Source: Actinomycetota bacterium
GTDB taxonomy: Bacteria > Actinomycetota > Actinomycetes > S36-B12 > UBA5976
DNA length: 46,005 nt
NCBI GenBank assembly: GCA_017853815.1
Contig: JAFMIT010000001.1
Span: forward strand, 1-46,005
Direction: 5' to 3'
The first letter of the stretch is position 1; every line of letters begins with the position of its first letter. Below the pieces are notes generated by a model. That model was not told the DNA's origin and did not search any database. It saw only the letters and a program-made list of their open reading frames with translations. Below, one piece after another: positions 14,387 to 40,764 of this stretch. Position numbers and translations under genes: made by a program.

Positions 14387-16043
<1,657 letters not shown>

Positions 16044-16071
16044 GCACTCGCACTCTAGAAACCAATGATGG

Positions 16072-16107
16072 CCAGCCGGAGTCACCGCCGCAGTTGACTC
16101 CGGCTGG
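16072..16107 (+). terminator. strong 13-bp hairpin between the two amtB-glnK units (terminator or attenuator without a clear U-tract)
   Basis: ccagccggagtca (16072-16084) is perfectly complementary to tgactccggctgg (16095-16107), with a 10-nt loop. Only a weak T-rich tail (tcatgttggttg) follows. Confidence 0.45.
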
Positions 16108-16120
16108 TCATGTTGGTTGC

Positions 16121-16158
16121 GTAACACTGCCGTAATAAACGAAACAAGGTTTCGAAAC
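16121..16158 (+). promoter_or_regulatory. GlnR-box-like operator upstream of amtB-2
   Basis: GTAAC(16121)-actgcc-GTAAT(16132)...GAAAC(16141)...GAAAC(16154, in 11-nt phase with 16121). Includes the perfect 10-bp palindrome gtttcgaaac (16149-16158). Confidence 0.45.
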
Positions 16159-16205
16159 GAAGACCGACCACAGTTCGCCCACCATCGATAGATGAGAGGG
16201 AACTC

Positions 16206-17869
<1,664 letters not shown>

Positions 17870-17887
17870 AGACTGACTGCTTTCGCT

Positions 17888-23207: not shown

Positions 23208-24485
23208 ATGACCTCAACCCCTGCCCTTACGCCCGAATCCTTCGGGCCCGCGACGGCCTTGCGCTGTCGTGAGTGCGGCACCGATTACGCCCTCGGCGCG
23301 GCATATTCCTGCGCAGAATGCTTCGGGCCGCTCGAAGTTGCCTACAACTTCGGCACTGTTACTCGGGAGCAGATCGCAGCAGGTCCACAGAACATGTGGC
23401 GCTATGCACCGCTCTTGCCAGTCGCCCCATGGGTTGCCGACGAACCTAACCTCAACCCCGGACTCACCAAGCTCATCAAGGCGGACAACCTAGCGAGAGC
23501 TCTGGGAATGACCGGCACGCTCTGGATTAAAGACGACTCCGGAAATCCGACCCACTCGTTCAAGGATCGCGTGGTCGCCGTGGCGCAGCATGCGGCTCGT
23601 CGACTCGGTCGAACAACGCTTGCGTGCGCTTCGACTGGCAACCTCGCAAACGCCGTTGCCGCTGCAGCTGCGCGTGCAGGTCAGACCTCGGTCGTCCTGA
23701 TTCCATCGAATCTTGAGGCCGGCAAGACCATCACCACAGCGACCTATGGCGGCACGCTGTTGGCGGTTGAAGGCAACTATGACGATGTCAATCGTCTGTG
23801 TTCAGAACTCATCGGCGAATCAATTACTGACACGTGGGGATTCGTTAACGTCAACTTGCGCCCCTACTACGCGGAGGGCTCGAAGTCGCTCGGTTTCGAA
23901 ATCGCTGAGCAGCTGGGTTGGCGTTTGCCAGACCAGGTAGTCATTCCTGTCGCTTCTGGCTCCTTGTTGACCAAGGTCGATAAGGCATGGCGAGAACTCA
24001 CGAGCTTGGGTCTCGTAGATGAGAAGGAATACGCAGTTTTTGGCGCCCAGGCGACCGGCTGCAATCCAGTGGCGCAGGCTTTTCGTGAGGGCCTTGAAGT
24101 GGTGCGTCCGGTCAAGCCAAACACAATTGCAAAATCTCTCGCGATCGGCAATCCAGCTGACGGCCCTTATGCGCTCGACGCTGCGCGTCGCACTCACGGC
24201 GCGATTGATGACGTGACAGACGTCGAAGTCGTGGAAGGCATTCGCCTCTTGGCAGAGACTGAAGGCGTGTTTGCTGAAACCGCTGGTGGCGTCACCGTGG
24301 CGGTTCTTCGAAAACTGCTCGCTTCAGGCGCTCTCGATCCAGCGAAAGAAACAGTGCTCATCAACACTGGCGACGGACTCAAGACTTTGGATGCAGTTGC
24401 GGATGTAGTGGGTCCATCGGCTATCGTCAAGCCATCTCTTGAATCTGCTGTCGATGCCCTCGACACTCTCGCTAGGAGCAATTAA
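23208..24485 (+). CDS. threonine-synthase-like PLP enzyme (MetM-like candidate)
   Basis: N-terminal Cys4 ribbon 'CRECGTDY..CAECFGPLE'. PLP-lysine motif 'NPTHSFKDRVV'. 425 aa. The stop overlaps the start of a sulfur-carrier gene. Confidence 0.8.
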   Translation: MTSTPALTPESFGPATALRCRECGTDYALGAAYSCAECFGPLEVAYNFGTVTREQIAAGPQNMWRYAPLLPVAPWVADEPNLNPGLTKLIKADNLARALGMTGTLWIKDDSGNPTHSFKDRVVAVAQHAARRLGRTTLACASTGNLANAVAAAAARAGQTSVVLIPSNLEAGKTITTATYGGTLLAVEGNYDDVNRLCSELIGESITDTWGFVNVNLRPYYAEGSKSLGFEIAEQLGWRLPDQVVIPVASGSLLTKVDKAWRELTSLGLVDEKEYAVFGAQATGCNPVAQAFREGLEVVRPVKPNTIAKSLAIGNPADGPYALDAARRTHGAIDDVTDVEVVEGIRLLAETEGVFAETAGGVTVAVLRKLLASGALDPAKETVLINTGDGLKTLDAVADVVGPSAIVKPSLESAVDALDTLARSN

Positions 24486-24772
24486 TGAGCGTCACCGTTC
24501 GCATTCCGACCATTCTTCGACCATACGCCGATGGCGCGTCGAGCGTCGAGGTGGAACCAGCGGGTGCGAGCTCATTGAGCGACGTCCTGGCTGCGCTAGA
24601 AGAAAAAGCCCCTGGCATCAGCGCACGCATCATTGACGAAGCGGGTGCACTTCGCCGTTTCGTCAACGTTTACGTCGGCGATGATGATGTTCGTTTCCTT
24701 GATGGTCTCAGCACCGTTATCGCTGCAGGCGCCACCGTTTCAGTCATCCCGGCAGTTGCCGGCGGCTGCTAA
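24485..24772 (+). CDS. MoaD/ThiS-family ubiquitin-like sulfur-carrier protein ending ...AGGC
   Basis: 95 aa. 'VTVRIPTILRPYADG...VEVE' and 'FVNVYVGDDDVRFLDGL...VSVIPAVAGGC' fit the beta-grasp carrier pattern. TAATG coupling to the upstream gene. Confidence 0.8.
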   Translation: MSVTVRIPTILRPYADGASSVEVEPAGASSLSDVLAALEEKAPGISARIIDEAGALRRFVNVYVGDDDVRFLDGLSTVIAAGATVSVIPAVAGGC

Positions 24773-27291: not shown

Positions 27292-27505
27292 AACGATTTT
27301 GACGCGTTTAGCCCTTGTGCGAAATCGTGTCAATAAGAGTTTTTCCAAGTTTCTTCCAAGAAAAAGCCAAAATGAACTTGACTCACGCTCTGCAACTTTG
27401 GGACTCTTAGCCCCGATTCGTGGGGAATCAATAAGTAACAGACAGCTCGCGGCACGGCGCTACCTGCGTTGTGCTGTTAAGAAGCACTAGAGAAGGGGAA
27501 GTCGA

Positions 27506-30500
27506 GTGCGACTTCGTTCAGTTCAAGCGATTACCGCTTTGGCTGCTGTGGTCATCGGATCACTGCCAGTTATCGCCGGTGTCAGTACGCCCGCAAGCGC
27601 AGCAGCGCCTGAGGCTCCACACATTCCACTCACCCAGACTGACCTCGAGTTCATTCTCGATCAGGTCATGATTGGTGAAGCACACGCCAACCGCACTCGT
27701 ACTGCGACTGGCTACACCACCAGCTGCTTGACTGCAGCTGATATCCCAGCTGGTCGTCTTGCTTTGACGTACCCCTACCAGGTCACACAGCCTTGGGGTA
27801 TCCGTCAGGTCGACGGTCGTTGCAACAGCCTTGTGACTGGCCAGCGTGAATGGGGTGCGTCGGACAACATCTTCCCACGCATGGTTCCCGCGAACTACAA
27901 GTCTCCTTACACCGTTGGTGCAAACGTCACGGATCCAAGCCCTCGATACATCTCTAACTTGATTGCGGATCAGACCAGCAACAACCCTGCGGCAACAGCA
28001 GTTGCAAACCGCATGGCAGCTGTGTCATCTACCGTGACCAACCCAACGAGCGGTTTGACCTCGACCCTGTACGAACTGGGCAACGTCACTCCCGACTTCG
28101 CAGTGTCTGCGCCGTACAACAGCTGGTTCACGCTGTTCGGTCAGTTCTTCGACCACGGTCTTGACTTGGTGCCCAAAGCAAATGCTGGTTCGGTCCTGAT
28201 TCCATTGGCATCAGACGATCCACTGTACGTCGCAGGTAGCCCCACGAACTTCATGGCCTTGACCCGTGCAGCTAACACTGCCGGCGAAAGCATCAACCTC
28301 ACGACTCCTTACGTCGATCAGAACCAGACCTACACCTCGATTCCTTCTCATCAGGTGTTCTTGCGCGAATACACCCTCGTTGGTGGCCGCCCATACGCAA
28401 CAGGTGCTTTGTTCGACGGCAAGGACAACGGCGTTACTAACCACGGTTTGCCAACCTGGGCTGAAGTCAAGGCTCAGGCCGCGGCCATGCTCGGCATTCA
28501 GCTGACGGACTACGACGTTGTGAGCATCCCTACGGTTGTCACCGACCAGTACGGCAAGTTCACCCCAGCTGCCAACGGCGCTGCTCAGCTTTTGAGCACC
28601 GCAGGTGGTTTGCTGCCAGGTTCACTCGCATCGCCAATCTCAACCGCTGGTGCAAAGCCAACCGGTCACGCGTTCTTGGATGACATTGCACACGCTGCAG
28701 TTCCATTCGGTGCCGGCGGGCCAAAGCTTCCAGACGTTGACAGCGCAATCGGTTTGACCGGCTCCTCTGCGACTTACTACGACAACGAACTTCTTGATGC
28801 TCACTACATCACTGGCGACGGTCGCGGTAACGAAAACATTGGTCTTACCTCTATTCACCATATCTTCCACTCAGAGCACAACACCGTTATGGCTGACATC
28901 CAGGCTCTCGCTGCAACGCTGCCAAACACCAGCACCGCACGTTTGAGCTTCTGGCAGCAAAACATTGGTGGCCAGACTGTGTGGAACGGCGAGCGCTTGT
29001 TCCAGGCAGCTCGTATGGTGACTGAAGCTGAATACCAGCACTTGGTGTTTGGTGAATTTGCTCGCCGCATTCAGCCAAACTTGGCTGCTTTCGGTGGCTA
29101 CTTCACGACCATCAACTCTGACATCCCTGCGGAATTCGCACACGCTGTCTACCGCTTCGGTCACTCTATGTTGAACGAAACCGTCGCTCGTCAGAATGAA
29201 GCAGGTGTGGATCAGTCAATCGACTTGATCCCAGCCTTCTTGAATCCGAAGTCCTGGCGTCAAAGCGGTACGTACGTGAACGGTGTCAATTCGCTCGGCG
29301 CCTACAACACCCTCACACCATTCCAGGGTGCAGGTGCAGTGGCACAGGGCATGACCGCTCAGCACGGAAACGAAATTGACGAGTTCACGACTGAAGCTCT
29401 TCGCAACAACCTGGTTGGTCTTCCACTCGACCTTCCAACGTTGAACATCACTCGCGCACGCGACACCGGTACTCCTTCTCTGAATGAGTTCCGTCGCTCG
29501 ATTTACAACAAGACCCGTAACGTCGCACTGCGTCCTTACCGTTCTTGGTACGAGTTCGGCACCAAGTTGCGCAACCCAGAATCTCTGGTCAACTTCGTTG
29601 CTGCCTACAGCACTCACCCAACCATCACTGCTGCTACCACCCGCGCGGACAAGCGTGCAGCAGCTGCCGTTTTGACGAACGCATCGACCGCAACTGGTTA
29701 CGCGTTCTTGCACAACACCAGCACCGTTGGTTTGGGTTCAGCTGCTGATCTCGAGAACATCGACCTGTGGATGGGTGGCTTGGCAGAACGCCCAGCTCTC
29801 GGTCTGTTGGTTGGTCTCTTGGGCTCAACCTTTGACTACGTGTTCACCACCACCTTGCAGAACTTGCAGGATGGCGATCGCTTCTACTACCTCGGTCGTT
29901 GGGCTGGTACCAACTTCGCGGGCGAACTCGAAGTGGCTGGTTTCTCGCAGCTCGTTCAGCGCAACTCAACCGCGTCGCACTTGCCTGATCCAGTGTTCAG
30001 CAAGCCAAACTGCACAATCGAAGTTGGAACTCTCACCTTCGACTCGGTCGGTTTCGCTCAGAATGCACCTGCAGGTTGCCCTGGCATCATCCAGACCCCA
30101 ACCGGCCGCATCGTTTACGACGGCATGGCGAACGTTGTGTTCGGTGGCACCCAGGGTGCAAACAGCATCAACGCCGGTCGCCAGGACGACACCGTCTGGG
30201 GCGATGGCGGCAACGATGACATCGAAGGCGGCATGGGTAACGACTTCTTGATGGGTGGCACCGGTAACGATGTCATCCAGGACGAAGACGGTATCGACGT
30301 CCTCAAGGGCGAGGCTGGTGACGACGTTCTCAACGGCGGTCCTGGTCTCGACATCATGAGCGGTGGCACCGGCAACGATGCCCTGTTCGGTGGTTTCGCA
30401 AACGCCAAGGCCATGATCTGTGGCGCTGGTAACGACTACACCTACGGTTCAAACGACGCTGACGCCATCAATGGTGACGACGGCAACGACTGGCTCGAAG

Positions 30501-32395
30501 GTGCAGGCGGCGCTGACGTCATCACTGGTAACTCCGGTAATGCCTTCCAGACCCTCTACCCAGGCGATGACGTCCTCATCGGCGGCGACGGTCTCGACTC
30601 CTTCCTTGGTGAAGGTGGCACGGACATTATGGTGGATCTCAACACAGGCAATATCTACGATGGTGGAGCTGGCTACGACTGGGTGACCCGTCGTCTCAGC
30701 AACACCCCAGCTGATATCGACTTGCTGAACGGCAACGTCATCACGCCAGTCCCAGGTATCACTGTTGACACCTTCCTCTTCGTGGAAGCTGCGTCAGGTG
30801 GCTCAGGCAACGACATCCTTCGCGGTGACGACCTCGGCAACGGTGGATTCTTGAACAACGATCTCACCCAGCCTGGCGTTATCACCGGTCTGAGTGCCGT
30901 TCTTGGTGGTGCAGCAACCTTCGCACGAGGCAACATCCTCCTCGGTGGCGCAGGTAATGACACCATCCAGGGCCGCGGTGGCGATGACATCATCGATGGT
31001 GACAAGGAATTGAACGTTCGCATCAGCATCCGTTCAGTTGCTAACCCAGCGTTGGAAATCGCGACGGTTCAGAGCCTCTCTGACATCACTGCCGATCTTC
31101 ACGATCGCATCGTCAGCCCATCACAGTTGGTCGTGGTTCGCGAAATCACCACCACCGGTGTGTCGGCAGACGTTGACACGGCTGTATACCAGAACCTCCG
31201 CGCTAACTACACGATCACTCGTGTGGCTGGCACCACGGATACCTGGACTGTCACCGACAACACAGCTGCCGGTACTGCCGCTAACGGTTTGACCTTGAAC
31301 GACGGCATCGACACCGTGAGCGGTATCGAACAGCTTCAGTTCGCAGATCAGATCGTGACGCTGCCACGCCCAGCAACTGTTGGCGCGGTTACCTTCAGCC
31401 CATCTGACGTTCCAGTGGCTGACAATGCAATCTCGATCAACGCATGGGTTACTCCTTCGGTTGGTGCAACTGCTCAGACTTACACCTGGCAGTACCAGAA
31501 CACCTTGGGTAACTGGATCAACGTGGCTACCGGTAGCCAGTCGTTCATCCCAACCACCGCATACGTTGGCCGTCCATTGCGTGTCGTCTACAGCTTCGTT
31601 GATAGTTTCGGTTTGACGAACTCGTTCAACTCGACACCAACGCAGCCAGTGGATCCAGGTATCGCACTCCCTGCAAACAACCCTGCAACTGGTGCTCCAG
31701 TCATCAGCGATACGACGCCTACGGCGACCTTCGCTCTGTCTGCAGTTACCACATCTATCGCTGACGTTGATGGCATCGCAAGCGCCTTCAGCTACCAGTG
31801 GCAGATTCGCACCAGCACTGTCGGTTCAGCGTTCACGAACATCGCTAATGCAACGAACCCGACATACACCCCAGTTGCTGCAAACGCGGGTTCCATCATT
31901 CGCTTGATGATTCAGTTCACTGATGGCATCGGCTATGTTGAAACTGTGTACTCAGCTGAAACAGGTGTAGTGGGTAACTTCTACGCAGGTACTGCTGCAG
32001 TCGATCGTTACACCGGTACCGCTGGTTCTGACGTCATGAACGGCCTTGCCGGTGCAGACGTCATCAACGGCGCAGCTGGAGCTGACATCATCGACGGTGG
32101 CGTCAACGCTGACACCCTCACGGGTGGCACCGGTTCGGACATCTTCTTGACTGGCTTGACCTTCGGAGCGGACATCATCACTGACTTCGACGCCACGCCA
32201 GCAGGTGGTCAGGACTTCATCGATCTGCGCCCAATGGGTGTCACCGCAGCTAACTTCGCAACGCGAGTTACGTGGGCACTCAACGCAGGTACCGTGTTGA
32301 TCAACGTCAGCAACGGCACCGCACAGGGCACATTCCGACTGAACTCCGTCACGAACGCGGCGCTCATCGACATTACCGACTTCATCACCCTGTAA
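27506..32395 (+). CDS. secreted haem peroxidase (peroxidase-cyclooxygenase / animal-peroxidase superfamily) fused to RTX Ca-binding repeats and Ig-like repeats
   Basis: GTG start after AGAAGGGGAAG. Signal peptide ending ASA|AAP. 'RQVDGRCNSL', 'FGQFFDHGLD', 'GDGRGNENIGLTSIHHIFHSEHN' and 'EFAHAVYRFGHSML' peroxidase motifs. Many GGxGxD nonapeptides in the C-terminal half. Confidence 0.85.
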   Translation: MRLRSVQAITALAAVVIGSLPVIAGVSTPASAAAPEAPHIPLTQTDLEFILDQVMIGEAHANRTRTATGYTTSCLTAADIPAGRLALTYPYQVTQPWGIRQVDGRCNSLVTGQREWGASDNIFPRMVPANYKSPYTVGANVTDPSPRYISNLIADQTSNNPAATAVANRMAAVSSTVTNPTSGLTSTLYELGNVTPDFAVSAPYNSWFTLFGQFFDHGLDLVPKANAGSVLIPLASDDPLYVAGSPTNFMALTRAANTAGESINLTTPYVDQNQTYTSIPSHQVFLREYTLVGGRPYATGALFDGKDNGVTNHGLPTWAEVKAQAAAMLGIQLTDYDVVSIPTVVTDQYGKFTPAANGAAQLLSTAGGLLPGSLASPISTAGAKPTGHAFLDDIAHAAVPFGAGGPKLPDVDSAIGLTGSSATYYDNELLDAHYITGDGRGNENIGLTSIHHIFHSEHNTVMADIQALAATLPNTSTARLSFWQQNIGGQTVWNGERLFQAARMVTEAEYQHLVFGEFARRIQPNLAAFGGYFTTINSDIPAEFAHAVYRFGHSMLNETVARQNEAGVDQSIDLIPAFLNPKSWRQSGTYVNGVNSLGAYNTLTPFQGAGAVAQGMTAQHGNEIDEFTTEALRNNLVGLPLDLPTLNITRARDTGTPSLNEFRRSIYNKTRNVALRPYRSWYEFGTKLRNPESLVNFVAAYSTHPTITAATTRADKRAAAAVLTNASTATGYAFLHNTSTVGLGSAADLENIDLWMGGLAERPALGLLVGLLGSTFDYVFTTTLQNLQDGDRFYYLGRWAGTNFAGELEVAGFSQLVQRNSTASHLPDPVFSKPNCTIEVGTLTFDSVGFAQNAPAGCPGIIQTPTGRIVYDGMANVVFGGTQGANSINAGRQDDTVWGDGGNDDIEGGMGNDFLMGGTGNDVIQDEDGIDVLKGEAGDDVLNGGPGLDIMSGGTGNDALFGGFANAKAMICGAGNDYTYGSNDADAINGDDGNDWLEGAGGADVITGNSGNAFQTLYPGDDVLIGGDGLDSFLGEGGTDIMVDLNTGNIYDGGAGYDWVTRRLSNTPADIDLLNGNVITPVPGITVDTFLFVEAASGGSGNDILRGDDLGNGGFLNNDLTQPGVITGLSAVLGGAATFARGNILLGGAGNDTIQGRGGDDIIDGDKELNVRISIRSVANPALEIATVQSLSDITADLHDRIVSPSQLVVVREITTTGVSADVDTAVYQNLRANYTITRVAGTTDTWTVTDNTAAGTAANGLTLNDGIDTVSGIEQLQFADQIVTLPRPATVGAVTFSPSDVPVADNAISINAWVTPSVGATAQTYTWQYQNTLGNWINVATGSQSFIPTTAYVGRPLRVVYSFVDSFGLTNSFNSTPTQPVDPGIALPANNPATGAPVISDTTPTATFALSAVTTSIADVDGIASAFSYQWQIRTSTVGSAFTNIANATNPTYTPVAANAGSIIRLMIQFTDGIGYVETVYSAETGVVGNFYAGTAAVDRYTGTAGSDVMNGLAGADVINGAAGADIIDGGVNADTLTGGTGSDIFLTGLTFGADIITDFDATPAGGQDFIDLRPMGVTAANFATRVTWALNAGTVLINVSNGTAQGTFRLNSVTNAALIDITDFITL
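30140..31003 (+). repeat. RTX (hemolysin-type Ca-binding) nonapeptide repeat blocks 1 and 2 (coding)
   Basis: Runs such as 'GDGGNDDIEGGMGNDFLMGGTGNDVIQ', 'GEAGDDVLNGGPGLDIMSGGTGNDALFGG', 'GGSGNDILRGDD' and 'GGAGNDTIQGRGGDDIIDGD'. Confidence 0.85.
31382..31972 (+). repeat. two tandem ~92-aa Ig-like repeats (coding)
   Basis: Repeat 1 has '...TAQTYTWQYQNTLGNWINVATGSQSFIPTTAYVGRPLRVVYSFVDSFG'. Repeat 2 has '...ASAFSYQWQIRTSTVGSAFTNIANATNPTYTPVAANAGSIIRLMIQFTDGIG'. Shared Y-x-W-Q ... (T/S)-Y/F-x-P ... G-x-x-(I/L)-R-(V/L) pattern. Confidence 0.6.
32009..32149 (+). repeat. RTX repeat block 3 (coding)
   Basis: 'YTGTAGSDVMNGLAGADVINGAAGADIIDGGVNADTLTGGTGSDIFL'. Confidence 0.8.
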
Positions 32396-32597: not shown

Positions 32598-32633
32598 TTG
32601 CAACCACCACAAGGTCTGATCTACAAAATCAGA
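32598..32633 (+). promoter_or_regulatory. candidate flp promoter with an overlapping palindrome
   Basis: TTGCAA (32598-32603), an 18-nt spacer, then TACAAA (32622-32627). The inverted repeat TCTGAT(32615-32620)/ATCAGA(32628-33) brackets the -10 element. Confidence 0.3.
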
Positions 32634-32653
32634 TGAAGGAAAGCAGAGAGATT

Positions 32654-32830
32654 ATGAAGCGTTTGCTCGCTATGTTTGTTAAGTCAGACGAAGGCGCCAC
32701 TGCGGTCGAATACGCATTGCTCGTCGGTCTGATTGCCGTCGTATTGATTGTTGGCGTTGGCTTGTTCGGTACCAATCTGAACACCTTCTTCAACTCCATT
32801 GCCACCTGGGTACAGGGGATCATGCCGTAA
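32654..32830 (+). CDS. flp: Flp-family type IVb pilin
   Basis: 'MKRLLAMFVKSDEG|ATAVEYALLVGLIAVVLIV...' shows the canonical G/ATAVEY prepilin cleavage motif after a 14-aa leader, plus a hydrophobic stem. The ORF-track ATG 32633 would add 7 aa. Confidence 0.9.
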   Translation: MKRLLAMFVKSDEGATAVEYALLVGLIAVVLIVGVGLFGTNLNTFFNSIATWVQGIMP

Positions 32831-32857
32831 ACGGCCCGGAGCCCTATCGAGCTTCGC

Positions 32858-33343
32858 GTGGTGAAATCGATGTCCCCCAGAGGATTCGCCAAGCGGAGTA
32901 CCCAGCGAGATAGTGGCGCGATCGCGGTGGAATTCGCCCTGGTCGCGCCATTATTGCTGCTACTCCTCGTTGTTGTTATCGACTTCGGTCGCTACTTTTT
33001 CGTCCAAATCAGTTTGAACGCTGCCAGCCATGAAGCTGTGCGCGTCGGCAGTCTGATTGAGATCAGCGGACTTGAAATGCAATCGCTTGCGCGCACAGCT
33101 GCGCCGGGGGCGCCAGGTCTCGCGGTTAAGAACCAAACATCAACGAGTCTCGTTGTTAAGGCATGTGCGAGCACGACTGTCTGCACGCCGACAACGCTTC
33201 CACTCACCAAACTGTGTGACATCAACACTCAACGAGACATCTTGTATGTGACGGTCACGCTTCCATTTGAATGGCTGACGCCGGTGTTCTCGTCGGCCTC
33301 CCCGAATCTCACAGCGCGGGCGGTGATGTTGTGTTCCATCTAA
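32858..33343 (+). CDS. tadE: TadE-like pseudopilin
   Basis: 'RDSGAIAVEFALVAPLLLLLLVVVIDFGRYF' is the TadE N-terminal motif. Confidence 0.85.
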   Translation: MVKSMSPRGFAKRSTQRDSGAIAVEFALVAPLLLLLLVVVIDFGRYFFVQISLNAASHEAVRVGSLIEISGLEMQSLARTAAPGAPGLAVKNQTSTSLVVKACASTTVCTPTTLPLTKLCDINTQRDILYVTVTLPFEWLTPVFSSASPNLTARAVMLCSI

Positions 33344-34458
33344 AGATTGGCCGCCGCAATCTCACCGATGACCATGGGGCGATCGGCCTCATTTTCGCCA
33401 TTGTTGTTGGTAGTGGTGTGCTGTTTGGCTTGCTCGCGATATCCGTTGATGTGGGCAACATCTACACGGAACGCCGTGTGGTTCAGAACGCTGCTGATGT
33501 CGCTGCTGTGTCTGGAGCGATGCAGTGCGCCAAGAATGAATGCACTCAGGTAACCGTCCAAAACCTCATGACTGGATATACGAACCCCAGCTCTCCCGAT
33601 CTCAAGACATCTGTATCGGCGCTGTGCATCAAACAGCCTGCTTCAGCCGGGTGTCCCGCAGTTGGCAGCAAGGCATTGGACTGCCGAGCCGTACCTTCAA
33701 CTCTGTCCAAGTACGTACGTGTCTACACCCGCAGTCTCGATCCCTCGGGAAGTTCGCTCCTGATTCCGTGGATCTCAAACGCCATCGCGACGAGTATCAA
33801 CTCTGGCACCACCGTGACTGCCTGTTCGCAAGCTGCGTGGGGGACTGTGAAAACCGTTCCCGTCTATTACCCGTTTGCGTTACCTGCCTGCGGCTACAGC
33901 GAAGACGCCGATCAGAACTTCAAGGAGTTGCCCTCAACGAACTCCGGTGAAACACGTTGGGCCGGCTGCGCTGTCACCGATCACGACAATCAACTTAAGC
34001 AGTTTCCAAGCTCTCCAACTGGTTTTGTGCAGGTGACGCTTCCGGGAGTCAGTGGCTGCGAAGTGTCGACCGCCGTGTCAATTGGGCAAGTGCTTCAGAT
34101 CAACACCGCGAATGATCAGCATCTGTGCGGCTCCGCCCAAACAGCCATTCCATCGCTGTTGCGAATGCTCGAACAACCTCGCTACATCCCCGTCGTCGAC
34201 GCCGGTACCTCGAACACCGTCACCGTGCGCTTCTTCGTGCAGTTTCGCTTGAAGGCCTTCTATTACGCGAAAACGGGCTATCCAAACGTCGCGCCTTACA
34301 ACACCTCAACATTTTGGAATAACCAAATCCCCTCATGCAACAACAAAGCTGGCAAAGACTGCCTCTACGGGCTCTTCGAACCAGCTGTTTACCCAGGCGG
34401 CGAAATCGATCCCAACGCTCCCGCCCTGGGCATTCAGGCCGTAAGGCCACTCCCGTGA
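33331..34458 (+). CDS. TadG-like (Tad N-terminal domain) pilus assembly/minor pilin protein
   Basis: 'GAIGLIFAIVVGSGVLFGLLAISVDVGNIYTERRVVQNAADVAAVSGA' is a TadG-like N-terminal domain. GTG 33331 overlaps the tadE end. The ORF-track ATG at 33271 is less likely. Confidence 0.75.
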   Translation: MFHLKIGRRNLTDDHGAIGLIFAIVVGSGVLFGLLAISVDVGNIYTERRVVQNAADVAAVSGAMQCAKNECTQVTVQNLMTGYTNPSSPDLKTSVSALCIKQPASAGCPAVGSKALDCRAVPSTLSKYVRVYTRSLDPSGSSLLIPWISNAIATSINSGTTVTACSQAAWGTVKTVPVYYPFALPACGYSEDADQNFKELPSTNSGETRWAGCAVTDHDNQLKQFPSSPTGFVQVTLPGVSGCEVSTAVSIGQVLQINTANDQHLCGSAQTAIPSLLRMLEQPRYIPVVDAGTSNTVTVRFFVQFRLKAFYYAKTGYPNVAPYNTSTFWNNQIPSCNNKAGKDCLYGLFEPAVYPGGEIDPNAPALGIQAVRPLP

Positions 34459-34471
34459 AAGTGAGCCGACC

Positions 34472-35215
34472 ATGAAATCCCGTACCGCGCTCAACGCTGT
34501 TGCAGTCATTTTGGCTGTGGTCGCTGGCATCTCGGTGTACCTCTATGCGAGTTCTGCGGATCGCAGAGCAGCCGATGCACAATCTCCACGTCACGTCGTG
34601 GTGAGCCGACAAATCCTGCCCGCAGGCACGTCGCTGGCTATGGCAAAAGACCAGGGCTGGATCTCTGAGACAACCGTGCCCGCAGCGTCACTACCCGACG
34701 GCGCCGTGACCAAGATTGATGCCTCGAATCAAGCATTGCTCTTGTTGCAGGAAGTTCCTGCTGGACAGATTCTGTTTAGTGCAAACTTGGCAGCCTCCAT
34801 GCCTCAGATCGGCCCGCTCACCATTCCCAATGGTCTGATGGCAGTGACGGTTGAGATGAGTGATCCCGCACGGTTGGCACCGTTCTTGCGTGCCGGCGCA
34901 GAGGTAGCGATCTTCGACACTGTTCAGCTAGCGGCCAACAACACCAGTGCGTCTGTCGCAAGCACCCGCATCATTATTGACCGCGCACTTGTGCTCGGAC
35001 TCGGTCAGACGACCCAGACGAACAACGCGGACGTTGCAGAAGGTGAAGCCAGTGTTTCTGTTGCGCTGGTGACGTTGGCAGTTACCCAACGTCAGGCTGA
35101 GCTGCTCGTGCATGCGGTACAGACGGGCGCTATCTACTTCGCGCTGCTGCGCGACGGCACGACCGTGACAGCTCCTCGCACGATTACCGACCTGTATCTC
35201 TATGGCCAGAAGTGA
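34472..35215 (+). CDS. cpaB: Flp pilus assembly protein CpaB/RcpC
   Basis: N-terminal TM segment, then a SAF-like region 'VVVSRQILPAGTSL'. Position between the pseudopilins and cpaE. Confidence 0.8.
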   Translation: MKSRTALNAVAVILAVVAGISVYLYASSADRRAADAQSPRHVVVSRQILPAGTSLAMAKDQGWISETTVPAASLPDGAVTKIDASNQALLLLQEVPAGQILFSANLAASMPQIGPLTIPNGLMAVTVEMSDPARLAPFLRAGAEVAIFDTVQLAANNTSASVASTRIIIDRALVLGLGQTTQTNNADVAEGEASVSVALVTLAVTQRQAELLVHAVQTGAIYFALLRDGTTVTAPRTITDLYLYGQK

Positions 35216-35224
35216 GATGACACC

Positions 35225-36397
35225 ATGGCTGTAATTCTCGGCGAGGTGCTCGCCAACAGAGACAAGTATGTGGTCGCGGTCGGCGGCGATTTAAGAATGG
35301 TTGGCTCCGCACGCGAGCTGCACACCGATCTAGACCAGCATCCCCAGGAAGATCTCGTCATCATCGGGCCAGACGTGGACATCTCGGCGGCGGCGGACAC
35401 AGCAATTCGTTACCGCGCGTCTAGACCATCGCTTGGCATGGTGCTCGTGCGCCGCCGACTTGAAGTATCAACGCTCAATCAGGCTCTTCGATCAGGTATT
35501 CGTGAAGTCGTTGGCATTGATGACACCACTGAACTTCTCGGTGCCTGCAACCGCTCTATTGCGTTGAGTCGCGAGCTGCGAAGCCATAGTGATGTCAGCA
35601 CACCTGCGTCGAAAGGTCACATCGTCATCGTGTTCTCAGCTAAAGGCGGCTGCGGAAAGACGACGATCTCAAGCAATTTAGCAGCCGCCATTCGAGAGCG
35701 AACTGGTCAGACTGTTGCGCTGGTTGATTTCGATTTGCAGTTCGGTGATATTGGCGTTGCTCTACAACTCGAACCAACTCGATCCATTGCTGACGCTATC
35801 GGAATGCACGCAAACCTCGATGCCCAAGGTGTGCAGTCCATGCTTATCGAGTATCGACCCGGACTGGATGTTTTGCTGGCCCCGCTGCATCCATCTGACG
35901 TGGAACACATCAGCGCAGATATGGCCCAACAGGTGCTGACTCATCTGCAGTACAGCCACGACTGGGTTGTGGTGGATTCACCACCTGCGTTCACTGAAGT
36001 TGTTTTGAGAACCTTCGATATGGCAGACGAGTTCGTGCTCCTCACCACACTCGACATGCCTGCGATCAAAAATCTCAAGGTCACGATGGACACTCTCGAT
36101 GCGCTCGCAATGCCGCGCGACAAGTGGCATGTTCTCGTCAATCGAAGCGACGCTCGCATGGGACTCAGTGTCGAAGATGTCGAAAAGGCGATCGGACTCA
36201 GTGTCAACAACAAGATAGCCTCCTCAAACGATGTGCCAATGAGTATCAACTCAGGCGAAATCTTGTTCTTGTCCAAGCCAAAACATGTGGTGAGTCGTGA
36301 GATTGCTCAGCTCGCTACCGACGTCACGGAGAAATATTCCAAGGCCGCTGGGAACGAAAAGCCCGGCCTTCTCGCGAGAGTGCGAGGTGCGCGATGA
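35225..36397 (+). CDS. cpaE: TadZ/CpaE ParA-like pilus assembly ATPase
   Basis: N-terminal receiver-like domain, then 'IVFSAKGGCGKTTISSNLA' and 'ALVDFDLQFGD'. Confidence 0.85.
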   Translation: MAVILGEVLANRDKYVVAVGGDLRMVGSARELHTDLDQHPQEDLVIIGPDVDISAAADTAIRYRASRPSLGMVLVRRRLEVSTLNQALRSGIREVVGIDDTTELLGACNRSIALSRELRSHSDVSTPASKGHIVIVFSAKGGCGKTTISSNLAAAIRERTGQTVALVDFDLQFGDIGVALQLEPTRSIADAIGMHANLDAQGVQSMLIEYRPGLDVLLAPLHPSDVEHISADMAQQVLTHLQYSHDWVVVDSPPAFTEVVLRTFDMADEFVLLTTLDMPAIKNLKVTMDTLDALAMPRDKWHVLVNRSDARMGLSVEDVEKAIGLSVNNKIASSNDVPMSINSGEILFLSKPKHVVSREIAQLATDVTEKYSKAAGNEKPGLLARVRGAR

Positions 36398-37749
36398 GCC
36401 TCTCTGGACGTCTTGATCGAGCTGACGCACACAACGCCAAGGACTACCTCAATGCTCCGAGCCTGCGGGACACGGCCGTCATTCCGATCATCACTGATAA
36501 CGGTGAACTGAAGGACAAAGTTCAAACCCAACTCATGCAGGTGATTGGTCAGCAGGCGTACTCGGGCCAAATCGAGCCGGCCGTGCTCGAACGGATGGCC
36601 TATGAGGCGATTGCCGAGGTTCTGCGAACCGCAGATCGGCCATTCACCGGGGTCGATCGCGCACGGCTCGTTCAAGAAATTATTGATGACATTCTTGGCC
36701 ATGGACCTATCGAGCCGCTGCTCCGCGATCCAGATGTCACAGAAATTATGGTCAATCGCTGGGACACCATCTTTGTCGAACGTCGCGGCAAGCTGTTCCC
36801 GAGTGACGCAACATTCGACAACGAAGAGCATCTCCGGCGCACTATCGAGCGAATTGTCGCCCGCGTTGGCCGGCGAATTGATGAATCGAGCCCAATGGTT
36901 GATGCGCGCTTGCCAGACGGTTCGCGCGTCAACGCCGTGGTTCCCCCGATTGCTCTCGACGGGTCCTCGCTGACGATTCGCAAGTTCGCCCGAGATCCGT
37001 TTACCTCGGCTGATCTTGTGCACATGGGAACCTTGACGCTGCCGGCGGTTGAGCTCCTCGACGCGTGCATTCGTGGACGCCTCAATGTTCTCATCAGTGG
37101 TGGCACGGGTTCTGGCAAGACGACGACGTTGAACGTGCTGTCGGGCTTCATCCCTCGTGACGAACGAATTATCACCATCGAAGATGCTGCAGAACTTCAG
37201 CTCGACCAGCCACACGTTCTGCGCATGGAATCACGTCCCTCCAATATCGAGGGCAAAGGTCTCATCACGATTCGCGATCTCGTTCGAAACGCTTTGCGTA
37301 TGCGGCCAGACCGCATCATTGTCGGTGAAGTTCGCGACGCTGCCGCCCTCGACATGCTCCAGGCAATGAACACCGGCCATGATGGTTCGATCACGACCGT
37401 TCACGCGAACTCGACCCGCGATGCGTTGTCACGCATTGAAACGATGGTGCTGATGGCCGGTGTGGATTTGCCGGTACGCGTCATTCGCGAACAAATCGTG
37501 CAGGCCATTGATGTGGTCATCCAGCAGTCGCGCCTGCGAGATGGCAGTCGCCATGTCACGGCCATCAGCGAAGTTTTGGGAATGGAGGGGGACACAATCC
37601 AGACTCAAGACATCTTCAAGTTTGAGTATGCCCAAGGCGTGACAGAAGGGCCTCTGGGTCACTTGGCTTCGACGGGAATGGTTCCTCGATTTGAACCACG
37701 GCTGCGCGATCGCGGCATCGAACTCTCAAGGTTGATGTTTGTGCGATGA
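36394..37749 (+). CDS. cpaF: CpaF/TadA secretion ATPase
   Basis: '[10 protein letters not shown]', Walker A '[14 protein letters not shown]', '[12 protein letters not shown]' and '[11 protein letters not shown]'. ATGA overlap with cpaE. Confidence 0.93.
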
Positions 37750-39368
37750 AAAGGTTACTTATTTCTCTGCTCGTCGGGCTTGCGCTGCTCGGCCAGCCGA
37801 GCGTGGCCAGCGCCAGTGACTACCCCGATGTTTTCTTAGTCTTTGATACGAGTCAGTCGATGCGAGGGGAGCGGTTGACTGCTGCCAAAGTTGCGACTAC
37901 CGCCTTCATCGAAGGCTTGCCTGCAGAAGTCGAAGTTGGACTCATCAGCTTTGCGACTAATGTCGAGGTGCAAGTGCCGCTGACGGCAGACCACGAACGC
38001 GTCCTGCAATCAATTTCGCGTCTCCGCGCGAACGGGGACACGTCACTGTATGACGGCATCAGTCAGGCGCTGCAGGCATTAAAGCGCAGCAATTCCGCTC
38101 GGCTAGTGGTGCTCAGCGATGGTCAGGACAACGACAGCGGACTGACGTTGTCACAGCTTTTGAGCCGCCTAGAAGCAAACGACACAGTTGTCGATGTCGT
38201 AGCTCTACAACCGGACGCTGCCCAACTTTCGATTTTGCGACGCATCACGGATACGCACGCAGGCGCCGTGGTGACTGCCGCCTCTGCAGGCAAACTCCTC
38301 GAAGCCTTCTCCCAGGTCGTCGTCACGCCGACTGCAACACCCACACAATCTCCCAAGCCGACCCACGGTTCTACTGTGAGCCCCACATCATCAACCTCGG
38401 TTGGTGATCTCAATCAGTCGTTCGCGGGTCGGCTTGGGGTCCTTTTTGGACTAGCCCTTGCCTTGGCACTCATCGTCAGCATCAGTGCCGTCTGGCGTTT
38501 CTTCAGACTACGAAAACTTCGCAAGCGACTCGATCAATACACGGACTTCACCATCGTGCCAGCGGAACTGGCGTCTGAAATCAAGCCAACATCGCTGCTC
38601 GACAATTTTGACTTGCGCCAGAGAATGCCAAAGACAGTTGCTCGGTTAGAGAACTCTGCGCTAGGAATTCCCATCAATATCTGGGTCATGATGATGGCTC
38701 TGGCATGGTTTTCAGTGCTTGCAGTTTTTCGCAACTCGACTGGTTCAACATTTATTGCGTTCATCGTCTCCACTTTGCTCGTAACGCAAGGCGGCAGACT
38801 TTTCCTCCAGTGGCGATTCAATCGTCGACTGCGAGAGTTTGAAGACAACTTGCCAGCGACGCTTGCGGTTTTAGCGAGCAGCTTGCGCGCCGGCCTGTCT
38901 TTTGCTCAAGCACTCGACACCGCAATTGCTGATGGAAAAGGCGAAATCTCTCTCCAATTTCGCCTGGCTCTTCAAGAAGTACAGGTGGGATCGGCTCTTG
39001 AAGATGCCCTCATGCGCACTGCAGAGCGCATGAAAAGCGAGGATTTGAAATGGGCAGTAACGGGACTGACCATTCAGCGCGAAGTGGGCGGAAGCCTGTC
39101 GCGAATCCTCGACACGTCAGCCAAGACCATTCGCGACCGAGCGGAGCTACGCCGTGAAGTACGCACGCTCTCTGCCGAGGGCAGACTGTCCGCGATGGTC
39201 TTGGCTGGCCTGCCTGTGCTCATCTTTCTTTTTCTCATGGTGACGCGACCTCAGTACGTGTCAGTGTTTTGGACTGAACCCATTGGCAACGTCATGCTCG
39301 CCGTGATGTTGTTGCTTTTCGGTGCTGGCTGGATGTGGGTCACGAAACTGGTGAAGGTGCGGGTGTAG
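37746..39368 (+). CDS. tadB: fusion protein: signal peptide + vWA domain + Pro/Thr linker + TadB (T2SS-F family) platform protein
   Basis: '[23 protein letters not shown]' signal. MIDAS 'FDTSQSM', 'GDTSLYDG' and 'LSDGQDN'. Linker 'TPTATPTQSPKPTHGSTVSPTSSTS'. The C-terminal ~290 aa are TadB-like ('LPATLAVLASSLRAGLSFAQAL', 'LSAEGRLSAMVLAGLP'). ATGA overlap with cpaF. Confidence 0.8.
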   Translation: MKRLLISLLVGLALLGQPSVASASDYPDVFLVFDTSQSMRGERLTAAKVATTAFIEGLPAEVEVGLISFATNVEVQVPLTADHERVLQSISRLRANGDTSLYDGISQALQALKRSNSARLVVLSDGQDNDSGLTLSQLLSRLEANDTVVDVVALQPDAAQLSILRRITDTHAGAVVTAASAGKLLEAFSQVVVTPTATPTQSPKPTHGSTVSPTSSTSVGDLNQSFAGRLGVLFGLALALALIVSISAVWRFFRLRKLRKRLDQYTDFTIVPAELASEIKPTSLLDNFDLRQRMPKTVARLENSALGIPINIWVMMMALAWFSVLAVFRNSTGSTFIAFIVSTLLVTQGGRLFLQWRFNRRLREFEDNLPATLAVLASSLRAGLSFAQALDTAIADGKGEISLQFRLALQEVQVGSALEDALMRTAERMKSEDLKWAVTGLTIQREVGGSLSRILDTSAKTIRDRAELRREVRTLSAEGRLSAMVLAGLPVLIFLFLMVTRPQYVSVFWTEPIGNVMLAVMLLLFGAGWMWVTKLVKVRV

Positions 39369-39370
39369 TG

Positions 39371-40279
39371 ATGAGTTCTGTCGGTCCAGCAATCTTGGGT
39401 TTGGTTAGCGGCGCTATTGGCTTCCTGTTCTTCGCTGCGGTTGCATGGCAGGCAAAGTCACATCAGAAGAGTGTGTTGCTTCATCAGTTGGAGCTCTATT
39501 CTCGAGAACGCACTCCGTCACTTCCTATTGCTTCGCAACCATCTCCGTGGGACAACTTTCTCGAGACAGCTGCTGAGATGTTGATCGGCGATTCGCAGCG
39601 GGAGAAGATGCATGAGCGGCTTGCAAAGTCCGGTAAACACAATCTTTCTGACATTCAAAATCTTGCACGCCAAAAGGTTCTATTTGCCTTGGCTGGGCTT
39701 GTTCTCGGGCTATTGATGGTGCTCAGTGGTAGCCCAATGGCTCTACTCGCGCTCGTCGGATTTGTGGCGTCAGGCTTTTACCTACCCGATGTCTTGGTCT
39801 ACAACCAGGCCCTTAAGCGATCAGAAGAAATTGAATTTGCGCTCGCAGACAGCGTTGATCTTCTCACGATGTGCGTCGAGTCAGGTCTTGGTCTCGAGGC
39901 AGCTTTCGCTCGAGTCGCTGAAACTCAAGAGGGTCCAATGGCCGAGGAGTTTGCCGCGTTGCTCGCCGAGCTGCGCATGGGCAAGTCCCGCAACGACGCG
40001 TTCGACGACATGGCCGCCCGATGCACACAACCAGATTTGCTGCGCTTCATTAGCGCCATGAAGCAGGTCGACAAGTTGGGCATTCCGGTCTCGGCAGTCT
40101 TGCAGGAACAGTCGCGTGAAATGCGGGCCACTCGGAGAGAACGGGCGCGTGAACAAGCGCAAAAGGTTCCCGTCAAGATTTTGATGCCCGTGATGCTGTG
40201 CTTCTTGCCGGGCATTTTCCTCATCATTCTTGGACCTGCTGTCCTTTCCATTCTCGGCAGCGCGATGTTTGGATCGTGA
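39371..40279 (+). CDS. tadC: TadC (T2SS-F family) platform protein
   Basis: 'DSVDLLTMCVESGLGLEAAFARVA' and 'RRERAREQAQKVPVKILMPVMLCFLPGIFL'. The ATG lies 2 nt after the tadB stop. Confidence 0.85.
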   Translation: MSSVGPAILGLVSGAIGFLFFAAVAWQAKSHQKSVLLHQLELYSRERTPSLPIASQPSPWDNFLETAAEMLIGDSQREKMHERLAKSGKHNLSDIQNLARQKVLFALAGLVLGLLMVLSGSPMALLALVGFVASGFYLPDVLVYNQALKRSEEIEFALADSVDLLTMCVESGLGLEAAFARVAETQEGPMAEEFAALLAELRMGKSRNDAFDDMAARCTQPDLLRFISAMKQVDKLGIPVSAVLQEQSREMRATRRERAREQAQKVPVKILMPVMLCFLPGIFLIILGPAVLSILGSAMFGS

Positions 40280-40764
40280 TTGTCATGTGGATGTGGGCAG
40301 TAGCTCTGGCAGGTTTGTTTGTGGTCACGGTGCCGCTCGTGCGCACCGACCTCGCGGTGATGCGTCTACCTAATCCGCTGACTTTCGGTCTTTTCGCTTG
40401 GGGACTTTTGTGCGCCGCGACGGCAGCGTTCGTTGCTTCGAGTTTCACACTCTTTGTCACTCCACTTTTGACCGGTGTTGCACTCGCAGCGGCGCTGCTG
40501 ATCTCGGGATATATCGCTCATGGGGGAGTGGGGCTCGGTGACGTGAAGTTGGTGGCGGGGACGAGCGTCGTCCTCGCTATTTACTCCTGGCAGTTGGCTC
40601 TGCTCGCGGTCGCTTTGGCTTTTATCCTCATGGCCGTTCGCGCGGTCTATGCCATCACGCGCGGTCACGCGACTTTCTCATCCCGCTTGCCGTTTGGGCC
40701 CGCCATTTTGGCCGGTGCCTGGCTCGCCGTACTGATCGCCATTGCTTCGGACCTGCGGCTCTAG
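40276..40764 (+). CDS. A24-family prepilin peptidase (TadV/CpaA type, no methyltransferase domain)
   Basis: GTGA overlap with the tadC stop (the ATG at 40285 is an alternative). Polytopic membrane protein. The 'TDLAVMRLPN' and 'GLGDVKLVAG' motifs carry the two catalytic Asp. Confidence 0.8.
   Translation: MIVMWMWAVALAGLFVVTVPLVRTDLAVMRLPNPLTFGLFAWGLLCAATAAFVASSFTLFVTPLLTGVALAAALLISGYIAHGGVGLGDVKLVAGTSVVLAIYSWQLALLAVALAFILMAVRAVYAITRGHATFSSRLPFGPAILAGAWLAVLIAIASDLRL

Follow-up and report, generated by a model that had tools for sequence, protein, structure and literature searches.

We analyzed a 46,005-nucleotide stretch of DNA deposited as an Actinomycetota bacterium (contig JAFMIT010000001.1 of assembly GCA_017853815.1, positions 1 to 46,005; hereafter the window) and focused on one of its genes, which encodes a 1629-residue protein predicted to be a secreted haem peroxidase with RTX repeats (Table 1). 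In our judgment, this gene is quite probably the monoderm (actinobacterial) version of the extracellular haem peroxidases known as long peroxicins or as MopA/PepA-type proteins. Translation could not begin any earlier than at its GTG codon, as an in-frame TAG lies 18 nt before it, at 27488-27490. The Shine-Dalgarno sequence was rated strong, and the intergenic gap before the gene is 214 nt. A scan for promoters and terminators around the gene was uninformative. A first-pass annotation, made from the sequence by a model, had delimited the same reading frame and quoted a series of motifs, all of which were present at the residues it named.

Table 1. Features of the peroxidase gene and the adjoining pilus locus in the window
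Feature	Residues	Position	Strand	Basis or remark
Whole gene, 1629-aa predicted secreted RTX haem peroxidase of the long-peroxicin or MopA/PepA family	1-1629	27506..32395	+	
Shine-Dalgarno sequence GAAGGGGA		27492..27499	+	Ends 6 nt 5' of the GTG start
Predicted Sec-type signal peptide	1-32	27506..27601	+	Sequence inspection and homologue comparison
Haem peroxidase domain with family-specific beta-rich insertions	~43-870	27632..30115	+	Pfam, AlphaFold2 (AF2), Foldseek
Distal haem-site motif FGQFFDHGLD	Gln213, Asp216 (candidate haem ester), His217, Gly218	28136..28165	+	Alignment
GDGRGNEN	Catalytic Arg440, Glu443 (candidate second haem ester), Asn444	28814..28837	+	Alignment
Proximal motif EFAHAVYRFGHSML	Arg550 (haem propionate), His553 (proximal ligand)	29132..29173	+	Alignment
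LNITRAR	Asn647 (hydrogen-bond partner of the proximal His), Arg650 (haem propionate)	29441..29461	+	Alignment; CyanoPOX N376/R379 (PMC11776367)
RTX beta-roll 1	878-1106; GGxGxD at 908, 917, 944, 953, 1026, 1053, 1098	30137..30823	+	Pfam, motifs, model
RTX beta-roll 2 (short)	1144-1164	30935..30997	+	Motifs, model
Mixed alpha/beta domain (..NVRISIR..SQLVVVREI..DTAVY..ANY..GIEQLQFADQ)	~1165-1285	30998..31360	+	Family consensus, model
Ig-like beta-sandwich 1	~1290-1380	31373..31645	+	Model, fold matches
Ig-like beta-sandwich 2	~1400-1485	31703..31960	+	Model, fold matches; weak ZirU_fam match
RTX beta-roll 3	1492-1558	31979..32179	+	Pfam, NCBIfam serralysin C-terminal region, model
C-terminal end module ..FDATPAGGQDFIDLRPMGVTAANFATRV..LIDITDFITL		32180..32392	+	Homologous to the end of proteobacterial copies without a signal peptide (presumed type I secretion substrates)
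Tad/Flp pilus locus (Flp pilin, TadE, TadG-like, CpaB, TadZ, CpaF, VWA-TadB, TadC, prepilin peptidase)		32633..40764	+	Neighbour, not a demonstrated part

A peroxidase domain with a conserved haem pocket and an RTX/Ig-like C-terminal half

Both domains anticipated by the first-pass annotation were matched in Pfam, An_peroxidase (PF03098) with an E value of 6e-61 and 207 bits against a cutoff of 25, and HemolysinCabind with an E value of 2.4e-31 in six stretches. The peroxidase domain begins at a conserved helix, TDLEFILDQV. An AF2 model of residues 33-880 (pLDDT 85.3, pTM 0.90) was compared with PDB by Foldseek, which returned 8s6c, 6erc (DdPoxA), MPO, LPO and DUOX with E values of 2e-25 to 1e-17 and target-normalised TM scores of 0.65-0.80, the best match being 8s6c (E 2e-25, TM 0.78; 0.80 for 6erc). 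A phmmer search against PDB sequences retrieved 8s6c (E 6e-27), DdPoxA, EPO, MPO, LPO and DUOX1. The structure 8s6c is that of CyanoPOX from Cyanobacterium sp. TDX16 (PMC11776367). CyanoPOX and DdPoxA are short single-domain enzymes that share the mainly alpha-helical fold and the pocket, including the Asp/Glu ester candidates, with the protein in the window. Different from them, its domain is ~330 residues larger through family-conserved beta-rich insertions, has Gly in place of the distal Ca2+-ligand Asp, and is fused to ~770 residues of RTX and Ig-like modules.

In the alignment to 8s6c, the segments FGQFFDHGLD, GDGRGNEN, YRFGHSML and LNITRARD pair with wGQFLDHDLD, GDVRSNEQ, YRVGHTML and LNIQRGRD, respectively. 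D216, H217, R440, E443, R550, H553, N647 and R650 thereby correspond to D80, H81, R199, E202, R291, H294, N376 and R379 described for CyanoPOX, in which D80 and E202 are the ester candidates (PMC11776367). These eight residues and Q213 are invariant in our alignment (50 or 51 of the 51 aligned homologues, counting those with a residue at the column), and R440, E443 and N444 are identical in all 51. The Pfam match, the fold matches and the pocket residues aligned to a solved bacterial structure bear out the placement of the protein in the peroxidase superfamily that had been made at first pass. As also claimed there, the residues for catalysis and for Asp/Glu haem ester links are present, and such bonds would be chemically possible. 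What had been overlooked is Gly218, which stands next to the distal His where animal peroxidases and CyanoPOX have the distal Ca2+-ligand Asp, and is Gly in 50/50 homologues with a residue there; the distal Ca2+ site of CyanoPOX uses D82 (PMC11776367). An MPO-type Met sulfonium link would not form because position 444 is Asn. Thus, of the features of the halogenating peroxidases MPO, LPO and EPO, the Asp/Glu ester residues are found in the protein, and the distal Ca2+ Asp and the MPO Met are not. The PERCAL insert (GxDGxx[GN][TN]xDD), in strict or loose form, was not found in the protein, which has a shorter loop where the family consensus has the insert.

The C-terminal half (residues 861-1629) was modelled with a pLDDT of 88.5 as beta-rolls, a mixed domain, two beta-sandwiches and a terminal cap, and this arrangement of rolls, mixed domain, Ig pair and end is that of the family consensus. 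The three repeat blocks and two Ig-like repeats recognized at first pass correspond to the modelled rolls and sandwiches. The protein contains nine strict GGxGxD motifs. An NCBIfam scan gave partial RTX-type matches only, including the serralysin C-terminal region at residues 1479-1616, and the fold matches of this half were tandem Ig/FnIII domains of RTX adhesins, the CyaA RTX domain and an RTX lipase. Since no wall-binding module was recognized in the protein, it is probably released or at most loosely associated with the cell.

A divergent member of a described peroxidase family

Of the 8,000 candidates scored in the protein search, at least 3,605 were homologues at E<=1e-10. Almost all of these are 1,500-2,800 residues long and share both Pfam domains with the protein in the window; they come from Pseudomonas/Ectopseudomonas, Nitrosomonas, Prochlorococcaceae, Methylococcales and metagenome-assembled genomes (MAGs) of Actinomycetota. 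Relatives were confirmed in GTDB species representatives (at least 581) and in JGI metagenomes (at least 563). The only close relatives in the protein collection are P0001 (~100% identity), P0002 (85%) and P0006 (54%), and no identity above 47% occurs among the matches listed from GTDB species representatives and JGI metagenome contigs. Judged by sequence identity, the protein is a divergent member of its family, with at most 54% identity to anything outside genus-level relatives. The near-identical copy on an ENA contig (P0001/L001), listed at '100%', differs in the last ~20 residues (..GTIRLNSVTNATLIDITDFLTN against ..GTFRLNSVTNAALIDITDFITL), indicating that the strain or assembly of the window is very close but not identical to it.

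In a rough neighbour-joining (NJ) tree of peroxidase domains, the protein and P0006 form a deep branch within the part of the tree that is signal-peptide-bearing and mostly actinobacterial. Given this position, and a G+C content of the gene (0.56-0.57) that is the same as that of its flanks, recent horizontal transfer from a diderm is unsupported. Some copies of the family are permuted (P0041, P0068, L033 and L079, from some Pseudomonas, Methylococcaceae and others): in these, an RTX block and the two Ig-like domains come first, followed by the peroxidase domain, with the DLxFILxQ helix starting at residues 381-1541.

Long peroxicins have been defined by one or two peroxidase domains followed by hemolysin-type Ca2+ repeats in a protein of 1600-3300 residues (PMC4420034, PMC6247904), an organization that the protein shares. 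In the classification of Zamocky they are Family 5, with PERCAL and hemolysin-type Ca2+ motifs, and their role was called 'completely unknown' in 2015 (PMC4420034). The long peroxicins are the same proteins as the MopA/PepA family, and the protein in the window belongs to this described family. The first-pass statement that such proteins have no assigned physiological role therefore does not hold. MopA has been shown to oxidise Mn(II) in Aurantimonas (manganoxydans SI85-9A1), Erythrobacter sp. SD-21, Roseobacter sp. AzwK-3b (via superoxide) and P. putida GB-1, and it requires haem and Ca2+ (PMC6247904). PepA (PP_2561) of P. putida KT2440 is extracellular, is peroxidase-active once reconstituted with haem, and was reported as a determinant of root colonisation and induced systemic resistance (PMC3396595).

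Nor is the combination of RTX repeats and a peroxidase as rare in monoderms as the first-pass annotation implied. Proteins of Arthrobacter chlorophenolicus A6 (B8HDW8, 1712 aa) and Arthrobacter sp. FB24 (A0JUB7, 1625 aa) were tabulated in 2012 (PMC3396595), and a 2022 survey put the number of MopA homologues in Actinobacteria at 47 (bioRxiv 10.1101/2022.11.10.515945). A 2010 review that predicted 16 RTX peroxidases noted as a surprise that RTX genes occur in six Actinobacteria genomes without homologues of the type I secretion system (T1SS) (PMC3034196). In our searches, family copies were found in cultured Kineosporia, Arthrobacter, Pseudarthrobacter and Cryobacterium.

Like the protein in the window, MopA/PepA proteins consist of a peroxidase with the same insertions, an RTX block, an inter-roll domain, an Ig-like pair, a second RTX block and a GGQD...DF end. 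With 82-98% of the length aligned, identity to MopA/PepA-family proteins is 38-45%, rising to ~50% when the peroxidase domain is taken by itself; it is 39-45% to two-domain Pseudomonas/Erythrobacteraceae copies, which are relatives of the characterised MopA/PepA and not the characterised sequences themselves. MopA/PepA proteins are extracellular, Ca2+-binding and haem-dependent, and the same is predicted by analogy for the protein in the window. In contrast to them, it has a Sec signal peptide, one peroxidase domain (two in P. putida and Aurantimonas), no PERCAL inserts, about half as many RTX repeats, four Cys in the peroxidase domain, and a deep branch shared only with P0006. Actinobacterial members (Kineosporia sp. 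R_H_3, Arthrobacter sp. Leaf69, A. oryzae, Pseudarthrobacter sp. 1C304 and Cryobacterium cheniae) are more alike in build, with a signal-peptide-like extension, one An_peroxidase domain, an RTX block and a length of 1.6-1.8 thousand residues, but their identity to it is only 40-44%. Most of them end in LGFP, SLH, Big_5 or FG-GAP plus fn3 modules, whereas the protein in the window and that of Kineosporia keep the RTX end.

Comparison of homologues points to export via Sec

Read by eye, the N-terminus of the protein consists of an n-region MRLRS, an h-region VQAITALAAVVIGSLPVIAGV and a c-region STPASA, with a predicted signal peptidase I cut between ASA and AAP; the positive n-region and the Ala at -3 and -1 agree with a Sec/signal peptidase I substrate. 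Neither a twin-arginine motif nor a lipobox Cys was found in this N-terminus, and Tat export was rejected for the protein on the missing RR motif; some homologues do carry RR in the n-region. Together with the strong Shine-Dalgarno sequence, the first-possible start and the comparison of homologues below, this layout upholds the signal peptide proposed in the first-pass annotation.

The conserved part of family members begins with the helix DLEFILxQI. In the protein, an extension of ~40 residues directly precedes the DLEFILxQ helix, which is the starting point of proteobacterial and cyanobacterial homologues. In the best 120 protein matches, 70 begin 3-10 residues before the helix and ~40 have an extension of 25-80 residues in which a basic n-region and a hydrophobic core lead up to an AXA-like end. 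Among loci from GTDB species representatives, 20 of the 24 actinobacterial ones were signal-peptide-like and none lacked the extension; the other four were left unclassified by the script, and in three of these (L030, L032 and L051) a signal peptide is visible by eye. The proteobacterial loci start at the helix, within 14 residues, in 40 of 46 cases, and none has an unambiguous extension. The extension is thus found in 20/20 classifiable actinobacterial and 0/40 classifiable proteobacterial copies, although the sequences in these counts, as in those of Cys and C-termini below, are related, and neither the counts nor the p-value for Cys stand for independent events. Two cyanobacterial loci start at the helix, and one Chloroflexota and one Rokubacteriota locus are signal-peptide-like. 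Three copies from diderms (P0032, P0036 and P0045, from Methylotetracoccus oryzae and relatives) have a signal-peptide-like extension plus a T1SS-like C-terminal module and group with actinobacterial copies in the NJ tree; a transfer from a monoderm into a diderm could account for them.

The 850-residue peroxidase region is free of Cys in 94% of the copies without an extension, and in extension-bearing copies it has 0, 2 or 4 Cys, never an odd number. Those of the protein in the window are C74, C106, C836 and C858 (27725-27727, 27821-27823, 30011-30013 and 30077-30079). Cys106, in VDGRCN, is common to 14/51 aligned homologues, all signal-peptide-bearing, and the other three are confined to the closest relatives of the protein. 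At the other end, the GGQD...DF(I/L) terminus of copies without a signal peptide is lost in most actinobacterial copies and kept in Kineosporia and in the window. The cultured actinobacterial copies pair the N-terminal extension with Gram-positive wall or surface modules, namely LGFP (Arthrobacter sp. Leaf69), SLH (A. oryzae), Big_5 (Cryobacterium cheniae) and FG-GAP (Pseudarthrobacter). RTX motifs are nevertheless retained in the signal-peptide-bearing class (median 10.5 vs 19). Taken together, these comparisons suggest that the rolls are kept for folding or stability on extracellular Ca2+ binding and not for T1SS.

The host itself is almost certainly monoderm, since the relatives of its Ffh are actinobacterial and its Tad locus lacks a secretin. 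Among named relatives, its Ffh comes closest to those of Actinomycetota MAGs (79-80% identity) and of Ca. Nanopelagicales (69-71%), and no secretin was found in the locus at 32633-40764, which is of the monoderm type. These two lines of evidence are in agreement with the actinobacterial context assumed at first pass, and the host is probably a member of the Actinomycetota from fresh water.

Serralysins, CyaA and RTX lipases, which are T1SS substrates, resemble the protein in their nonapeptide beta-rolls and C-terminal end module. Unlike these classical substrates, it has an N-terminal signal peptide, a monoderm host, and no nearby genes for an ATP-binding cassette (ABC) exporter, membrane fusion protein (MFP) or outer-membrane factor (OMF). 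A Pfam scan of large open reading frames in the 46-kb window gave no match over cutoff to a T1SS of this type, in line with the first-pass remark that none lies nearby, and one sub-threshold ABC_tran match, in the CpaF ATPase. No T1SS was found within 10 kb of an Ectopseudomonas copy either, so adjacency is not diagnostic either way.

We also considered export by a C-terminal RTX-type signal through an ABC exporter encoded elsewhere, that is, a two-component T1SS without an OMF, with the N-terminal segment serving as an anchor or having no function. The homology of the GGQD...DITDFITL end module to that of proteobacterial copies without a signal peptide would fit such a route, as would the HlyB/HlyD-like pair that lies beside an RTX gene in the Gram-positive Streptococcus sanguinis (PMC3034196). 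However, the 46-kb window has no HlyB/HlyD-type pair, nor do the six Actinobacteria genomes with RTX proteins (PMC3034196). Loss of the RTX end in most actinobacterial copies has left their N-terminal extension in place, and this extension carries an AXA site and goes together with paired cysteines. We therefore regard this route as improbable. Sec appears to be the best-supported export route of the protein, given the extension, the Cys parity, the C-terminal swaps, the ribosome-binding site and start, the n-h-c layout with its AXA site, and the lack of a T1SS in the window. The term 'signal peptide' does not occur in PMC3396595; new here, at the sequence level, is the systematic contrast of signal peptides, Cys and C-terminal modules between monoderm and diderm copies.

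Proposed mechanism and substrate

In the mechanism that we propose for this monoderm MopA/PepA-type peroxidase, the unfolded precursor would be exported via Sec, as the signal peptide and the homologue comparison suggest, and would be cut by signal peptidase I after Ala32. Outside the cell, the three RTX beta-rolls would fold on binding Ca2+, and the Cys pairs 74/106 and 836/858 of the peroxidase domain would probably form disulfides. The domain would take up haem b, with His553 on the proximal side and His217, Arg440 and Gln213 on the distal side, residues that are conserved and homologous to those of solved structures. During the first H2O2 turnover, Asp216 and Glu443 could become ester-linked to the haem, which is chemically possible. 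The mature enzyme would then oxidise small extracellular substrates using H2O2 or O2-derived species.

As the substrate, we suggest by analogy Mn(II), oxidised to Mn(III), as a tentative first guess, Mn(II) being the only substrate documented for the family (PMC6247904). Iodide, bromide, thiocyanate or phenolics, as in CyanoPOX, are possible alternatives because the LPO-type pocket is complete except for the distal Ca2+ ligand; CyanoPOX, with the same Asp/Glu, acts on iodide and aromatic substrates (PMC11776367). The job of the same enzyme could then be removal of H2O2 or oxidation of halides and pseudohalides in the manner of LPO or CyanoPOX, for defence or competition instead of Mn(II) oxidation. 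Such a role would suit a pocket that keeps Asp216, Glu443, Gln213, His217 and Arg440 and whose closest solved structure, CyanoPOX, prefers iodide and aromatics (PMC11776367). The host is moreover related to freshwater planktonic Actinomycetota, and external H2O2 removal matters for the acI relatives, with unproven relevance to this host (bioRxiv 10.1101/343640). Yet a halide-oxidising or H2O2-removing role has so far been demonstrated for no long peroxicin, the distal Ca2+ site of the halogenating peroxidases is altered in the protein (Gly218), and the MPO-type Met is missing (Asn444). We consider this role rather unlikely.

Several observations weigh against the assignment as a Sec-exported, Mn(II)-oxidising MopA/PepA-type enzyme. 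The rough NJ tree puts the protein outside the proteobacterial clades that hold relatives of the characterised MopA/PepA, and the PERCAL inserts, present in a subset of long peroxicins, are missing from it. The signal peptide was assigned by inspection alone, and its 21-residue h-region could be an uncleaved anchor. In addition to the relatedness of the sequences counted above, three Methylococcales-type copies are also signal-peptide-like, so the extension is not strictly a monoderm feature. The protein retains the C-terminal module of copies without a signal peptide, and an ABC exporter could be encoded beyond the 46 kb. With regard to the enzyme itself, CyanoPOX, with the same Asp/Glu, was crystallised with non-covalent haem, haem uptake outside the cell is an assumption, and no sequence feature tells Mn(II) from other substrates.

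Genomic surroundings

The Tad/Flp pilus locus, which is complete, lies on the same strand as the peroxidase gene, with flp-tadE-...-tadC starting 237 nt after it. Its Flp pilin carries a G|ATAVEY motif, and in its TadB homologue (37746-39368) an N-terminal von Willebrand A domain is fused to a T2SSF domain. This arrangement raised the alternative that the protein is a surface or matrix component that acts with the pilus in attachment, in which the peroxidase cross-links or mineralises a matrix (peroxidasin-like, or as Mn oxide) and the RTX/Ig part forms an adhesin stalk. Besides the adjacency, the 85% relative (L002) has the same peroxidase-flp-tadE order, and the C-terminal half of the protein resembles the extender regions of RTX adhesins. 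On the other hand, the protein has just two Ig-like domains and no recognized anchor, Tad genes adjoin the peroxidase in none of the other scanned family loci (8-10 kb flanks each), and in more distantly related actinobacterial copies a HisKA_3/LuxR pair takes that place; we give this alternative little credence. A Tad link as a feature of the family was rejected, as a tblastn search of 167 loci with nine window proteins placed Tad genes beside the peroxidase in L002 alone. The adjacency is lineage-specific.

In actinobacterial MAGs, as in Ectopseudomonas chengduensis, the peroxidase gene has a HisKA_3 kinase and a LuxR/GerE regulator directly next to it (15991-17969 in L004/L005, 15949-17945 in L006 and 7291-9446 in L007). 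The two may be a conserved regulatory pair for the peroxidase family, and they are absent from the window. In E. chengduensis, a second, two-domain peroxidase of 4089 residues adjoins the first.

The 5' part of the window contains, in order, fakA-like, recG, coaD-like, rnc, fpg, smc, ftsY, amt, amt, a PII-sized open reading frame, glnD and ffh. The order smc-ftsY-amt-glnB-glnD-ffh is also that of Mycobacterium tuberculosis (Rv2922c-Rv2916c). The two ammonium-transporter genes are in tandem (14387-15703 and 16206-17522, both 438 aa) and are followed by the 113-residue PII-sized frame (17528-17869) and glnD, a group (14387-20221) that sits inside the smc-ftsY-...-ffh block, as in Mycobacterium. 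Between ffh and the peroxidase gene are a permease, a pyridoxal-phosphate (PLP) enzyme, a ParA-like gene, a kinase and a short-chain dehydrogenase (SDR). The PLP-dependent (PALP) enzyme (23208-24485) is followed by a small ThiS-family frame (~24500-24770, from the gene calls of L001), resembling the actinobacterial CysM/CysO cysteine pathway. DUF1003 and further genes lie 3' of the Tad locus, where a 354-residue frame (41276-42340) has a weak Neur_chan_LBD match (E 1.4e-4, 21.8 bits, cutoff 26) and is a possible actinobacterial homologue of the bacterial pentameric ligand-gated channels.

Implications for the family

For the gene itself little changes, as it is an ordinary, if divergent, member of the MopA/long-peroxicin family. 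For the family, it is conceivable, though we are far from confident, that its copies form a natural experiment in the switching of secretion routes, from T1SS in diderms to Sec in monoderms, with the protein in the window as an intermediate form. Such a switch would go with the gain of a signal peptide, the gain of paired Cys and, usually, the exchange of the T1SS-type C-terminus for wall-binding modules; the protein would be intermediate in having a Sec signal and four Cys yet a complete RTX end module. If this is true, RTX beta-rolls would be a general device for extracellular folding on Ca2+, independent of T1SS, and the puzzle raised in 2010 by RTX proteins in T1SS-less Actinobacteria would be answered. 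More speculatively, the enzyme may have an extracellular H2O2- or Mn-handling function tied to the neighbouring Tad pilus in a freshwater lineage. The signal peptide contrast, the Cys parity and the C-terminal swaps together offer a simple, testable answer to how RTX proteins are exported from Gram-positive cells, and the copies in cultured Arthrobacter, Kineosporia and Cryobacterium could bear on whether Actinomycetota are to be credited with Mn oxidation in soils and lakes.

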